Positions 4,244-54,893 of a DNA stretch of 64,000 nucleotides are shown one piece after another; positions within the stretch are counted from its first letter, which is position 1; the number at the start of each line of letters is the position of its first letter. The position numbers and the translations under genes are program-made. This DNA is from Carcharhinus longimanus. Lineage: Eukaryota. The notes below the pieces were generated by a model. It was given only the letters and a program-made list of their open reading frames with translations. It had not been told where the DNA came from and searched no databases. The stretch covers positions 159,314,299 to 159,378,298 of the forward strand of contig JASCQW010000001.1 of NCBI GenBank assembly GCA_030264375.1. The letters run 5' to 3'.

Positions 4244-6279
4244 CCATTTCCAAACCCCCCCCCGCAACCCCGAACACCACCACGCTGCAAGCTTTAATAT
4301 TTCCCGCTCTGTTCGCTAAGTCAGATCCAGTGATTGTTTAAAAGGGGCCTTTTTGCCCGTGTCTAACTCTAAATGGTCCATCTGTTTAAACGGCACCTGT
4401 TTAGAACACTCTGTCCACAGTGCCAATGCTTTAATATGTCCTGGTGCCCTAACTTAAAATATCACCTAACAGTATGTGTGCCTCTAAATAATATAGCATG
4501 TAACTAACCAGCAGATACAGCAGTTCAAGAATATTTATGTTTTCTTTAAATAAGTGGATTGGTTATTAAGGAATATCAGTATACTGCTGAAAACTGTAGG
4601 GGTACAGTCAAAAGGTGTAAACAGTGTTAGTCTGAACCATGGCCCATTGTTGACATCTCATGCACATTTCTAAAAGGACAATTAGAACGTCACATGCATG
4701 TTTTCCCCGGTAGATTATACCATGCTCATTGTATGCCATAACACTTAATACTCAGGGCAATCATTTATACCTCAGTGCTGCTTCAACATTAGCAGATTGC
4801 AAACAGCGTAAACATGTGATGGGAAGCACCTCAACTAAATTCTCACAGCAGACTGTCGCAGCAACCCTACCCCACCCCCCCACTCCCCTCCTTCCCCACC
4901 CACCCCCGGCCAAAACAAAGAAAAACAGTCTTTGAATGTACCCCTACAGTTTTCAGTCTGTGCGACCCACCGCTTGTGTAAGGTCTCAAAGGGAAAAGGT
5001 TCACTTCACGACGTTGGCTAAGGAAGGCGGAGAACGGGCTCGGTGATTAAAGAAATCAAATCACGTTCATCTCCCGGGAGTGTTGTTTTGTCAGAAGCTG
5101 TGCCTGGGGAGAGGAGGCGGGGGGAGGGGGTGGCGCTCCTGGCGAGACTGGGACGATCGGTTCTCTGTTAACTGGCAGACATTTGTGTCTCAGTTTGGGG
5201 GGGGGAGGTGTTCAGGACAAATTTGAAATGATAGAGTCAGATCTCCGTTAATGCTTGTCCATTTTGATCTCTGACACCCTTAGCATCACCACATCCCCCC
5301 CACTTCCCCACCCACGAAACAAAACCACCTCTTTGCCATTTACAAAATCGAGTCATAGAGGTTTACAGCATGGAAATAGGCCCTTTGGCCCAACTTGTCC
5401 ATGCCGTCCTTCTTTGTTTAACCGCTAGGCTAGTCCCAATTGCCCCCGTTTGGACTCTGTCCCATCTTACCCATGTCACTGTCTAAAATAGAGGATACAT
5501 GCATCAGTTAAGCCATCAGCTAAAGTTTCCAAAGGTTTCGATCACCCTTGACGTGATCAGACATACAGAAGCGGGATCAGGAACGAAAGGAATGTTTAGT
5601 TCCACCAGATGCTTGAAATAGCTGTCGGATTCTTCCCCGCTGCCGATTGCAAAACTGCAGAAATTCCATTGGAGTGTTAACATTGCACAATCCTTCTGTA
5701 TTATTAACATGCACACAATGATGTAAAAAGACAACAGCATTCAAAGTAATGAAAACACAGGCTTGACAGCTTGAAGTGACAAGACACTCGAAGTTTCTGA
5801 CACATCTGTGTTGCGGTGACAGAATGAACTAGCGCTGATCATAATAAACATTCTATCGCAATTTTGAATAATTCAAATTTTCGGTTAAGTTCAGGGAACT
5901 GCTTTGATCATTTTTGACAGCCACACGTCCCTCTGGGTTTCCTTGCTCTTGACAAGAGTCGAGCTCTGCGATGTCTTTTGAAAGCAGAGGGTTATGGATT
6001 GAGAGTTCAGATGGCACACAGCTTTCTTCATACTGAAAGAGGAAACTGAATTGTTGCAGCTACGTTGACAGGACTGATAATGAAGTACACAATTAAACAG
6101 AAAAAAAAAGTTTATTTGAAAGAGGCTTTAAATGCGTCTGTTTCACAAACACAGGAAGATATCAGAAACTTTGTCCTTTTGCTGACTGCAGGTTCAATGC
6201 TGTGTATTTTGAACAGGTGTGGACTCTAATCTGCATCTCTAACAGCTTGTAAGTGTTGTGAACCCCCAACAAATTGATC

Positions 6280-8121: not shown

Positions 8122-8761
8122 TTAGACAGCAATTGGGTCCTGATTAGCAATTACATTGGACAGCCTGACTTGTAACTCTTCCTGTGTAGAGTACCTATTG
8201 GTGGAGTTAGTCCTGTTTTCAGCCAATCGGTATGCAGGGGCTGATTCTACGCTCGTTGCCATGGCGTTCTGTATGCTCAGAAAGGGTGTCTCTTCCCCTA
8301 TTCGTTCATCTTCAGTCTCACTGTCAGAGCTACAGCTCTCGGAGCTTGGATTGCCCTCGCTCTCCATTCTGTGTGAAATGTGGCCATTAGCCTTTGTTCT
8401 TTTCCCTTTCCTGCTGCTGGCCCCTTTCTTGGGCGACTCGAGGGCCGGCTCGTACTCCTGCGTGGTCTCGTACTCGTCGTCCTCGGCCACCCTCAGCGGG
8501 CTGGCCGGGATGCTGCCACTGTCCTTGATGGAGTTGCGGTACTGCTTGTAAGGGTCCTGCCTCTTCTCCCGTGGCCGAGGAGGGGTTATCAGAAGCAGAG
8601 GCCTCTCCTCCTCGATTAAGGGGCTTATGGCCACCGATGGCATGGATATAGTCAGGCTAGAGACCGGCGGCGACATCTCTGAATCGGGCGACTTGGGGGA
8701 CATTGGGGTCCTGAAGTCCACTGGCGACATTCTGGCCGGGGTGGTCATGGCAGAGACAAAC
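8122..8761 (-). CDS. NRG1: Terminal exon, a-type cytoplasmic tail: FVSAMTTPARMSPVDF...EYETTQEYEP...LSNVIANQDPIAV*
   Basis: attacag|GTTTGTC acceptor; TAA at 8122-8124. The ORF ends in the diagnostic NRG1 C-terminus ANQDPIAV. Confidence 0.97.
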
Positions 8762-9699: not shown

Positions 9700-9846
9700 C
9701 CCTCAAAGCTCCTCGCAATGTTTCTTGATCCAAGTAGGACAACTCCAGCTTTTCCAACCTAAACTTGTAGATGAAATCCTGCATGCACAGAACCATTCTG
9801 GTAAATCTCCTCTGTACCCTGTTAGGGACACTCACATCCTTCCTAA
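9700..9846 (-). mobile_element. CR1 LINE fragment
   Basis: Minus strand AGGAAGGATGTG...GGGTACAGAGGAGATTTACCAGAATGGTT...GGAAAAGCTGGAGTTGTCCT. Confidence 0.65.
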
Positions 9847-9877
9847 TGTCCAAATTGTTGGATCAGAAATCAAGCCT

Positions 9878-10034
9878 TCAGTTAATTGTGTCTTGATCCG
9901 TTAATAGTTTTTGGGAATGTGTGGAACTGCAAGCTGATATCATCCTTCTGAATTTGGTGACACAGCCATTTGCTCTTGGGACAGCAATTGAATCCTGATT
10001 AGCAACAACATTGCTCAACTTGGAAGAGGTCTTT
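9878..10034 (-). other. Candidate alternative terminal exon or degenerate duplicate of the a-tail end: (R)KTSSKLSNVVANQDSIAVPRANG...QDTIN*
   Basis: ctgtcccatctgttcccacag| acceptor, in frame with the donor at 10691. Positions 9980-10013 match 8125-8158 at 30/34 nt. Confidence 0.5.
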
Positions 10035-10690
10035 CTGTGGGAACAGATGGGACAGTTCAGACTGTGTTCAAATCCATCAGAGACTGACAGGAATGAGAGT
10101 CTTTGCTACTCATTTCATGGGTATGGAGTGAACTTGTAGTCCAATTCCTGATATGTGTGACAGATTTTTAATTTATGCTAATTACTGAACTCAAAGAGGT
10201 CAGAGGGCTGGCGAATGTGAGACATGTTAGTGGGCTGCCAGGATTGTGGTCTTCTGAGGTTGGAGAAGATTACAAGGAGAATTTGCATCTTTCACAAATA
10301 CCCAAGAGAGTGAAGAGTTGGACACTGCATCCAAAATACAGCACTTCCTACACTGAAGCAGAGTCAGCTTCGATAATGAGTACAAGCCTCTGGAATAATC
10401 CATGATTTTTGACTCAAAGGCACAAGACCTAATACCTGAGCCAAGACTGGCACATCTTAAGAGTTGTGCAGGTTACAGCCATGCCCTCGGTCCCTACAAT
10501 TGCATTCAGATCTCCGTCTACGGTCAGGGCAATAACCTCACTCCCTACTGACTAAGCTGTGCCATTAATCTCACCTTCCAGCCAAACATCCCTTCCCAGT
10601 TAAAGTTTTGTCCTCTGTTACTATTATACCTTATACCCGTACACTCAGTTATTACAGCCACAAAGTACAAAAATAGCTGCGGGGCCTTAC

Positions 10691-10894
10691 CTTTCGCTAT
10701 GCGGTGAATCTCGGAGAGAGTCCGGAGTGTCTCTCGAGTTCCTCACACAGATAAGCATCTCTCGCCGACCTGCCACACCGTTGAGTCGCCCTCGGTGATT
10801 GATTGGGCTGGTGTGCCTGCTGGTTTCTACTGAAGAAGTTACAAGCACGGAGGGGCTGTCTGAGATGACACTTTCCGTTTGGCCTGTACTCCAA
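10691..10894 (-). CDS. NRG1: Cytoplasmic exon 3: WSTGQTESVISDSPSVLVTSSVETSRHTSP...RDSPHSE(R); read-through gives the c-tail ending PHSER*
   Basis: ggccacag|TTGGAGT...GAAAG|gtaagg; 204 bp, phase 2-2; contained in ORF 10687-10956. Confidence 0.94.
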
Positions 10895-11119
10895 CTGTGG
10901 CCGACACAAAGAGAAACATCTTTAAATCCCTGAGTCAGGTTAACTGTGGAAAGCACTCAGCCAACATTTTTATTTTCACAGAGGGAGATCTTCAGCTTCT
11001 TCCCAGCTGTAATTGGCACCACACCTTTGATTTTAAAGAATAATTATCCTTTTGTCTAAGTTATTGAGACACATCGTTATAGGAGAAGCAAGGGGCTTCA
11101 GCAATATTTTATGTTCTTA

Positions 11120-11665
11120 CGTGGGAAGTGGGCATTGCTGGCAAGGCAGGCATTTCATAGAATCATAAAACCATAGAATCCCTACAGTGCAGAAGGAGGC
11201 CATTTGGCCCATCGAGCCTGCACTGACAATGACCCACGCAGGCCCTATCCCTGTAACCCCATATATTTACTCTGCCAATCCCCCTGACACTAATGGACAA
11301 TTTATCACAACCAATCCACCTAACTGGCACATCTTTGTCTCAATAATTTTGGCAAAAGGATATTTATTCTCTAAAAACAAATTTGTTGCTTATTCTTAAT
11401 TGCCTTTGAACTGAACTTGATTGCCTTTGAACTTGCTAGGCTTCTTCAGAGGGCAGTTAAGAGTCAACCACATTGCTGGGTGGGTCTGGAGTCATGTGTA
11501 GACCAGACCAGGCATGGACAGCAGATTTCCTTCTCTAACGGACATCAGTGAACCAGATGGGTTTTTGTAACAATGTCCGATAGTCTGATGGTCACAGTTG
11601 TCGAGACTAGATTTATTAAAGGAATTTAAATTCCACCAGCTGCCATGGTGGGGTTTGAATCCACA
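11120..11665 (-). mobile_element. SINE family B (core AAACCCATCTGGTTCACT..GTCC..GAAGGAAATCTGC), interrupted by an HE1 3' fragment at about 11157-11335
   Basis: Shares its core with copies at 28510, 33497, 34810, 42800, 48755 and 56955. Family name uncertain. Confidence 0.75.
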
Positions 11666-13467: not shown

Positions 13468-13754
13468 AGGGGTGTTGTTCACAACCAATAGAGGTTCATT
13501 TGTGTGACACCTGCTTCCCCTTCAGTTTACCGCAGATCTTTGCTAATTGGTTCTTGTTCTACACTACCAAGACTGGAATTGAACCCAGGTCCCTGGCATT
13601 GTGAGACAGAAGTGCTAAGCCACTGTACATTTACAGATGAAACTGCAATGCTGCCAGGGCTGTTGTCCACAACTAATAGAGGTTCCTTTCTGTGATATCT
13701 GCTTCCCCTTTTTGTTTATTGCAGATCTCTGCTATTGATTCTTGTTCTCCGCTA
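13404..13754. repeat. Diverged direct tandem duplication (about 165-190 bp x2) of a SINE head plus unique flank
   Basis: GGAA(C/T)TGAACCCAGGTCCCTGGCA...AATAGAGGTTC...CTGCTTCCCCTT...GCAGATCT...TTCTTGTTCT occurs twice. Confidence 0.8.
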
Positions 13755-15427: not shown

Positions 15428-15690
15428 CACCATTAACACAACAGTATTAATCCCATACCGTGTCTACTGACACAATACTGCTAACTCTATATTACGCCCA
15501 CTGACACACTCGCATAATGCTGTTAATCCAATATTGTATTACACTATTCATTTGCTAATTCTGTATTCCATCCACTGACACACTAACGCAGCTATTAATT
15601 TGATATATTATTCTGTCACATTAACACAATGTTATTAATCCTATATTGTATCTAATGACACATTGCTGTTAACTGGATATAGCACTGGCA
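15428..15690. repeat. Degenerate minisatellite of about 34-40 bp (ACTGACACAATGCTGTTAATCCTATATTGT-like)
   Basis: About 7 recurring 'ACAC..T(G/A)TTAA..TAT' units. Confidence 0.6.
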
Positions 15691-22232: not shown

Positions 22233-24694
22233 TTTTAAAAGAAAAACAAAAAGGAAAGGAGAAAAAAAAAGGTGCCAGAAAGGTAAGAGATCTTTGATTT
22301 TAAAAAGTAGTAGTTTTAGGTTAAGGAATCAATAGTAGGCCTGGTATAGCATGCTTGATAGTGGAAAGTAAAACACGGGAGGACTTGGAAGGGAGTGATC
22401 AGAGCAAAATGTGAAGGGATGCCCCACACAACATAACCACCGACTGACTGAACCAGCACAAAAATGAATCACAAGTTATTTTTGAAAGGGAATAAAGGTG
22501 ACAATAAAGATAAAAAAATGAAGGGGATTTCAATCTCATCGTACTGCTTTAAGCAACTGTTGGCTACATCCCTTGCCCGCAGTCAGGCACAGGCCTGGTG
22601 TTGGTCAGAGGCCGCGTTTGAAGTGTATTCAGTTAAAACACCGCTTTTTTAGTAAGTGCCTTGCACGATTTCCTTAGGCCTCCTGGGCCCAAAGAGGAAG
22701 GGACCTGTATCATTTAGTCTGTGGTTCCTCCATTGTTTGCAGCTCCAGATTCTTGGGAATTCCTGGAAGGACGTCTGTCGAAGGCCCTGTGCTGCCCTTG
22801 CCAGCTAAAAAGCCTCAAGGCTGGTTCATTTGGGAGCATAGTGTCCTTCGCGTGACAGCAAAATGGGAATCCAGAAAAGGACCGCCATTACGCACTGGGG
22901 TGTTGGGGGGGGGGATGTGGGCGGGGTGCAGAAGGTGGCTTGTGACTGCCCCGTAAGGGGGGGAAATAAATGACCAGGGATCAAGCTCCAGAATCACGTG
23001 CTGATTCATGAGAATACAATTCATTGAACTGCAAGATGCTTTTATTTCCAGCTTGGGTCCAAAAAAATGAAGCACTTGGAAACTTTTAAAAGGGTAAAAA
23101 TGTAACAATAAAGATTTAAAAAAAATGAAGGTGATTTCAATCAAATTAGACTGCTTGAAGCATCTTTCTCGCCTGCAGTCAGGCCCAGGCCTATTGCCAT
23201 CGTCAAAGGCCTTGCTGAACTGTCTTCAATTGAGACACAGCTTTCTAAATAAAATTAGTGGTAATAAATGTTTTAACTTCTCGTTAGACAGGGGAGGGAG
23301 GTGTGGGGGAGGCTGACTGGTGTTGGGTAGAAAGATCTTCCGAACTCTCCTGACAATCAGTTCCTAAAAATTCGGCCAGTCAGCACAGATCACTTTCTAC
23401 CATTGCAATCTCCAGCCAGAAATGTCGTCTATTTTTCACAAGTGCACTTATTATCCCTACAAATTGAACCCGTTTCCATTTGAGGCAGCGCTAGACCACT
23501 CTCACCGGCAGCTCACAAGCTTCCATTTTGAGGCCTTCCTCAGCGAACTTACTTGTTCCAGATTCGGGGTGGTGGAGAAAGAGCTGTTAACATGTGGATA
23601 AACTGATACAGACTTCAACACTGAAAGGATGCAGGATGTGCTGCAGAAAGTTTCCATTTTCTAATAAAGAATTTAAAGCTGAACCTTCCTGTGCTTCTNN
23701 NNNNNNNNNNNNNNNNNNNNNNNNNNNNNNNNNNNNNNNNNNNNNNNNNNNNNNNNNNNNNNNNNNNNNNNNNNNNNNNNNNNNNNNNNNNNNNNNNNAG
23801 GGGGGCTCAAAAATTTAGGGGCAGGTTGCTGGGTGCTTTCTCCATTTCGTCTGATCCCTTGGGGAGCTGGTATTGTGAAGTCAAACTGGATTGAAGGCTG
23901 CCAAGTTTTGGATCAATTTGGATATGAAATCAACCTTTGAATGATTTTTGCATCGCAGCATCTGTCATTTCACAAATCACACCTTCGCAGTTAATTCCTC
24001 GTTTTGTGACACAGAAATACACGATGGGGAAACGGCAGAAATATCTACTCTGGCTCCAAGAAAGAGAGCGTTGTTAGAATTTGACAGTGGCTCACTCAGG
24101 AGAAGTTTCGTCTTTGATAACTCCACCGGCTCCTGCTTTTTCTCCCTGCACACTCAAATTGAAATTGGATTTAGAAAAATGGCGGCCTTAGCCATGACCA
24201 ACTTATATCAGAAAGGTAGCATTGCACTTAAACAATCGGGGCGGGGGGGGTGCTATTTCTATCACAGGCTTTATTTAGTTTGAATTGATTTAAAAAAAAA
24301 TTCCTCAGGAAGCTTCAATTCCTGGAAGTCAAATCGAAATCTAGATTGTGCAATAGGGTTGGTGCATAGATCAACCATGGCCTGATTGAATGGTGGAGCA
24401 GGGTTCGAGGGAATTGAATAGCTTGCATCTACAAATCAAGTTTCCTGGCGGGGTTGAAAGAACCATTCCCTTTTAACGTTTTGCGTGCTACCCCACGAGA
24501 AGTGCGGCCAAGTGCTATACAGGCTGTTATGGCTGGATCATCCCTTCCAAAAGCAACAGGGGTGGGGAAGGGGGAAGGAGGAGGGGGGGGAGAGAGAGAG
24601 AGAGACAGAGAGAGAGACACGGAGTTAGGAACTGAAGGCAGGTCATTGCTGTCAGGTCTAATTCTGCAGATGAAAAGGAATGATTTGTCCATAC

Positions 24695-53910: not shown

Positions 53911-54729
53911 CCACTTGGGCAGCAAAGTCACTCATAAGATTTTAAATACTAGGCAAGAATGCCGACTCTCCCACGACAATTAGTCTAGAGGCTGGAGGCT
54001 GTGGACTGGCTAGGAATTGTTGTAAAAAGGCACACATTGGAGATTAGGTCAGAGTAAAACGTGCCCTACTGTATGGGGAGGTGTCAGACAACCAGCGTGT
54101 AGGAAAGACAAATAATCCACAGCAACAGTAAGAGAGACTAAAAAGAATGACAATTGACTCGCTCGTAACTCATCTACACTCGTGCGTGCTTATATGACCG
54201 GGGCACAGAAAAAAACTTGGGAGGACTCCAGAAATAAAATACCTTCTTGGAAAATATTGAAAATCAAAGGCGTGAAAGCCTGGACCGGTCAGTGTGAATC
54301 AGAGACGCATTTCTCACACAGCATCAGCAGCCAGCCAGCACTAGGGTATCCCAACAAAGCCAAAACTTGGCCACAGTCAGAAAAAACATCAACGTTTCAG
54401 AGCTATTGAAATGTTAGCACTTTTGAGTGGATGACAAACTGCCCTCCACCACCTTCACTCTTCCCCCTCCTCCCTGCACCCTCTCCTTTAACTCTCTTAC
54501 CTGGGAGGAAGCGCATTTTTTTAAATGCTGTGGCAGATAAAAACGTCTCGTCCCAAGATCGAGTGATCTCGCCCTAACACTTACTGCAGTCGGCTCAAGC
54601 AAGCTCGAGAGGTTGCTCCTGTGACTTCTCTGAAATGATCTCAGGACCTTTCTCTTTTTTTTTTGTTTGCTGGTTTAAGTATACTCCCTTGGCCACGTCA
54701 TTGCACCATCTGATGTGCACTTGTGATGG

Positions 54730-54893
54730 TCAACAGGCACTGAGACGTCAGCCACAGGGGNNNNNNNNNNNNNNNNNNNNNNNNNNNNNNNNNNNNNNNN
54801 NNNNNNNNNNNNNNNNNNNNNNNNNNNNNNNNNNNNNNNNNNNNNNNNNNNNNNNNNNNNGGACAACAGGCACAGAGACGTCAGCCACAGGGG
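54730..54893. repeat. Minisatellite (CAACAGGCACWGAGACGTCAGCCACAGGGG) flanking a gap
   Basis: The same ~30-bp unit occurs on both sides of the N run. Confidence 0.65.

Follow-up and report, generated by a model that had tools for sequence, protein, structure and literature searches.

A short copy of the NRG1 C-terminal coding end in the last intron of the gene in Carcharhinus longimanus, probably a neutral local duplication

Alternative exons that arise by tandem exon duplication are a known class, and the b-tail exon of human NRG1, exon 17, is unrelated in sequence to the a-tail. Human NRG1 carries alternate a or b tails and has a 3′ end in exon c3 (PMC11360300), and exon 17, which precedes the last exon (exon 18), is described as skippable (PMC7788813). 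The NRG1 intracellular domain signals, is needed in vivo and binds LIM kinase (PMC2172983). Short local duplicates were catalogued by Pace et al. (2009; PMC2671141), who counted 824 repair-mediated duplications in human, with donor and copy within 5 kb and mostly within 3 kb, and attributed them to synthesis-dependent strand annealing; both partial and whole exons were copied, and the two whole exons were without coding constraint. Here, we describe a short copy of the end of the NRG1 coding sequence in the last intron of the gene in C. longimanus. We favour, with good though incomplete confidence, a neutral proximal duplication, in which the end of NRG1 was copied locally by a templated event and has been drifting without coding function.

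On the minus strand of the window, by which we mean the whole 64,000-nt stretch of DNA analysed, lies the 3′ part of NRG1. Its EGF, alpha, beta, transmembrane and cytoplasmic exons were placed by tblastn with shark NRG1 proteins, including the penultimate coding exon at 10691–10894 (minus strand), with its splice donor GT at 10690–10689. The coding part of the terminal (a-tail) exon occupies 8122–8761 (minus strand) and comprises 212 codons and a TAA; its closest match is Mustelus asterias NRG1, with 209 of 212 residues identical. Alpha-type and beta-type EGF exons were both found (window 38642 and 37774, minus strand), and the beta exon continues into a short open stretch and then a stop, resembling a secreted form that we take to be beta3. 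Read-through of the penultimate exon's donor (10692–10687, minus strand) meets an immediate TAA and would yield the shortest tail, presumably the c-type. One paralogous neuregulin terminal exon, and no other, was found in the genome (L012 / G000:C109:38914050-38914682; 52% identity, with a different C-terminus); we take it to be NRG2. At its corresponding donor, read-through meets no immediate stop.

The intronic copy lies at 9980–10013 on the minus strand and is identical at 30 of 34 positions to a donor segment at 8125–8158 (minus strand), the last 11 codons and one additional base of the a-tail (E 3.1e-6 by blastn, with the remainder of the window as the target). The copy may extend to 43 nt, reaching 10022, with a weaker match. 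The encoded peptides are LSNVVANQDSIAV and LSNVIANQDPIAV, and the match and both peptides are as the original prediction had given them. The copied stretch coincides exactly with the a-tail's most conserved end and stops with the last sense codon. By Smith-Waterman alignment, the exon and intron scored 48, against 21.3 ± 2.2 and a maximum of 31 for 300 Markov-shuffled introns. A genome-wide scan (2.68 Gb) with a 24-nt degenerate core pattern, allowing up to 2 mismatches, returned two matches, the intronic copy and the terminal exon, and none for a reversed control; 9860–10690 is otherwise single-copy in the genome. A pattern scan of metagenome contigs had no matches. An origin of the copy from NRG2 was ruled out, the copy scoring 14 against the NRG2 exon.

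The copy is also present in related sharks: it was found in contigs of four DNA-type runs, X15–X18 (four of the six unlabelled runs containing the sequence), two of which come from organisms about 4% divergent, and none of the four showed an empty site. It is therefore neither an artefact of this assembly nor private to this genome. A match by chance, or an assembly artefact, might be entertained for a segment of only 34 nt in an assembly that does have duplicated ends beside gaps, but the alignment score far above the shuffles, the distance of both arms from any gap and the X15–X18 contigs refute it, and we give it next to no credence.

The similarity is sharply confined. In 10-nt blocks along the diagonal, scores of 6, 8, 8 and 10 were obtained across the core and 1–5 elsewhere, and masking the core lowered the best exon-intron score to 21, the shuffle mean. 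Lenient alignments detected nothing further, either between the rest of the terminal exon and the upstream intron (p=0.55) or in the flanks (upstream 240 nt, p=0.18; downstream 200 nt, p=0.98). By codon position, identity is 9/11, 11/11 and 10/12. Had selection on the protein preserved the core while its flanks decayed past recognition, third positions would be expected to lie close to saturation. At least 10 matches among 12 third positions has a probability of 0.0006 at saturation, or 0.016 when codon bias is allowed for, which argues for a short DNA copy and not an old exon duplicate kept at the protein level. The simplest reading is a short copy, made at the DNA level, of moderate age. An old interspersed repeat fragment, with 74–83% identity to many genomic copies, lies nearby at 9703–9849.

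These data bear on the proposal that the whole terminal exon was tandemly duplicated long ago, with the motif of the duplicate then kept by selection or refreshed by gene conversion, and with the duplicate perhaps once ending in its own stop. Such an event would fit a match that stops at the last sense codon and spans the most conserved motif, the similarity of two more residues upstream of the core, and a 1.86-kb spacing suited to a tandem unit. Against it, the flanks hold no residual similarity on either side and the third positions are unsaturated; the four core differences fall as two adjacent pairs, of which two differences change residues; a residue change at 10014 is common to X16, X17 and X18; and the last intron of the NRG2 paralog contains no copy of either gene's C-terminal end. 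We regard this explanation as improbable. What survives of the earlier claim is that a duplication occurred; its extent and age do not, as nothing outside 34–43 nt aligns and the synonymous positions are unsaturated. Like tandem-duplicated alternative exons, the locus places paralogous sequence in the adjacent intron with an in-frame acceptor; unlike them, it shares 34 of 640 nt with the terminal exon, has a candidate acceptor that is not homologous to the terminal exon's own, and displays no protein-level conservation.

To gauge how common such local duplicates are, we surveyed 464 kb around the window, masking repeats to leave 254,568 locally unique nt, for pairs at most 10 kb apart scoring at least 40. 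Eight of 22 near pairs touched assembly gaps and were dropped, leaving 14: the NRG1 pair, 7 inverted and 6 direct. Repeats placed independently of distance would give 0.9 pairs, a comparison in which low-copy repeats could inflate the observed count because masking drew on the 464 kb alone. The direct pairs include 46 nt at 100% identity 1.6 kb apart and 34 nt at 88% identity 7.6 kb apart. Three neighbouring pairs were checked genome-wide: two were two-copy but gap-adjoining, and are among those dropped from the count, and for the third only the query itself was found, its 34-nt partner being below the reach of that search. The perfect 46-nt direct duplicate (L047:1605-1650 and L047:3288-3333), which adjoins no gap and lies near an NRG1 Ig exon, is a more recent instance of such local copying. 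Diverged, near-tandem direct pairs also occur in NRG1 introns at 13481–13748 (81 nt, 84%), 15431–15680 (62 nt, 79%) and 22457–23252 (205 nt, 71%), while short inverted pairs at 4587–4956 and 11027–11380, 270–320 nt apart, are possibly terminal repeats of small DNA transposons. At 54728–54893, an identical 33 nt flanks a 100-N gap, an assembly overlap artefact of which several more occur in the flanking 400 kb.

The NRG1 pair resembles the set of Pace et al. (PMC2671141) in several respects. It consists of a unique donor and one copy, not in tandem, less than 3 kb apart and within the same gene; part of an exon was placed into an intron; and there is no poly-A tail, inspection of the flanks having found no poly-A/T tract at the ends of the copy, and no sign of coding constraint. 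Its arms are separated by 1,822 nt, which lies between that set's limits of 50 nt and 5 kb. It differs in being 34–43 nt long, against their cut-off of 50 and mean of 162, and in being more diverged (88%). Because it falls below that cut-off, we consider that it works like a repair-mediated proximal duplication without counting it among theirs; and since it is not inside a known transposon, unlike their cases, its breakpoints are unreadable. By analogy with that set, local templated copying such as break repair is the likely origin, in which a break end in the final intron would have copied 34–43 nt of the nearby terminal exon and then rejoined. The copied piece, 1.8 kb away, would probably have drifted neutrally since.

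A candidate acceptor lies next to the copy. Its AG, at 10036–10035, is 21 nt upstream of the core, and the acceptor segment at 10035–10057 (minus strand) contains 14 pyrimidines in 20 positions and ends in CAG. The resulting exon start at 10034 is in phase 2, as is the true acceptor at 8761, and in phase with the donor at 10691, opening a candidate frame at 9878–10034 (minus strand) of 51 codons to a TGA at 9880–9878. Acceptor, phase and frame were all borne out as first proposed; coding constraint on the frame, or use of it, was not detected. Echoes of the a-tail PASPL motif, claimed in addition, exist as PGSPL (10242) and FASPL (10215), yet both are found upstream of the acceptor, are out of frame with the candidate tail and stand at chance level. 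Scored with a crude matrix built on the gene's 8 true acceptors, which range from 2.2 to 10.1, the candidate reached 3.6; by the same crude matrix it stands among the top 73 of 2400 intronic AGs (top 3%) and seventh of 147 in its own intron. An in-frame, stop-free acceptor this good is found within 60 nt of a random position in 2.8% of cases (136/4923), and one of any positive score in 10.3%. Beyond the candidate stop and as far as 9700, the one donor-like site, GTGAGT, is at 9830–9835 (minus strand), within the interspersed repeat. As a donor, it would define a 199-nt cassette, 10034–9836, whose stop would fall 42 nt short of the last junction; such a transcript is thus predicted to escape nonsense-mediated decay. 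The stretch from the candidate stop to the terminal exon contains neither AATAAA nor ATTAAA.

These features raise the alternative of an exonised duplicate: a minor, tissue-restricted transcript joining 10691 to 10034, in which a 51-residue tail replaces the 212-residue a-tail, probably as the 199-nt cassette rejoining the terminal exon, in the manner of a lineage-specific b-type tail. An acceptor within the range of true sites, the donor-like site at 9835 and the human precedents of a skippable exon 17 and alternate tails (PMC7788813 and PMC11360300) speak for it. Against this, six AGs of the same intron outscore the candidate, the donor lies inside a repeat, and the free C-terminus of the motif would be lost. 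Like the mammalian b-tail exon, the candidate has the same intron position and a phase-compatible acceptor and would swap the long a-tail for a short tail; unlike that exon, it contains a copy of the a-tail end, and neither expression nor constraint was found for it.

Sequence from relatives allowed us to examine constraint directly. X18 differs from the window at 41 of 1071 nt (about 96% identity), of which 40 differences are listed; the unlisted one is a G>A change and so cannot affect the AG. The differences listed for X16 and X17 are not complete. X18 retains both the AG and the frame, in favour of exonisation, but its changes within the candidate frame, 1 synonymous and 5 nonsynonymous (only 6 changes, in one relative), resemble a neutral expectation of 72% nonsynonymous. 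The penultimate exon in X18 carries 5 synonymous changes and 1 nonsynonymous (p=0.008 against neutral), and the contrast between the two (1/5 vs 5/1) has a Fisher p of 0.08. The substitution rate in X18 is 3.8% in the candidate frame and 4.3% in the intron. The 34-nt core is free of listed changes in X16–X18, where some differences are unlisted; for X18, this has a probability of 0.22 at the intron rate. In X17, a 39-nt deletion at 10077–10115, 41–79 nt upstream of the AG, takes out the sole CTRAY-like branch candidate, which was spotted by eye.

Transcript and protein evidence follows the canonical structure. The penultimate exon is spliced to the terminal exon in all four probable RNA assemblies that we examined (X1, X5, X6 and X12; one contig each), and the loose end of each contig corresponds to 8759–8730, inside the terminal exon. 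These assemblies represent four related organisms from four studies; they are four of 14 such runs, with small shares, and their RNA status is a guess, no run recorded as RNA having been found to contain the sequence. They gave no cover over 9868–10686 and no joint between 10691 and 10034, a result that pertains to contigs, from which rare isoforms are dropped, in organisms that may or may not carry the intronic copy, and to the loose ends shown, nine others lying outside it; missing cover over a part is no proof by itself. Of 193 NRG1 proteins retrieved, none had the candidate tail and none had the motif copied internally. The a-tail directly follows the penultimate exon in all 120 homologues listed (the best 120 of 145) and in 71 of 73 further cluster members, the other two being fragments; this protein set includes no other short-tail isoform and may hence be blind to such forms. 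The 51-residue frame had no match among proteins of near length or among longer ones, the latter being weak evidence, and HMMER against 1.84 billion representatives gave four matches, none of them NRG1: three long repeat proteins, matched over 8–11 stretches, and one 148-residue protein, matched over 4. In the literature searched, which subscription journals lie outside, we found no paper on shark NRG1 tails.

Reuse of the duplicate as a tail exon, as originally suggested, thus gained no positive support: changes in X18 are neutral-like, four of four junctions are canonical and none of the 193 proteins has the tail. All of the functional tests that we ran came out neutral or canonical. We grade these negatives as soft, because rare forms are lost from contigs, the transcripts come from relatives and the protein set lacks other short tails. 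On balance, we hold exonisation to be unlikely, while still a more serious contender than an old exon duplicate. In the neutral duplication that we prefer, the in-frame AG would be cryptic and there by chance, with use no higher than noise level. The in-phase acceptor and the end of the copy at the stop codon are real coincidences and remain odd, though scanning many windows picks out such cases. The small remainder of probability falls to chance or a non-coding role.

Were the duplicate exonised, ground sharks would possess a new NRG1 cytoplasmic tail, made from the C-terminal motif of the gene itself by repair-type micro-duplication, in a short isoform with the motif internal and the rest of the a-tail dropped; this would constitute an independent b-like tail in the very intron that houses the mammalian b-tail, an outcome that we consider unlikely. 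If true, it would show cleanly how a micro-duplication can give rise to a new coding exon and would be a case of convergent NRG1 tail switching, even then as a minor isoform in one shark lineage. If the copy is neutral, it is another short local duplication of a kind known in vertebrate genomes, distinguished only by the conserved motif that was copied.
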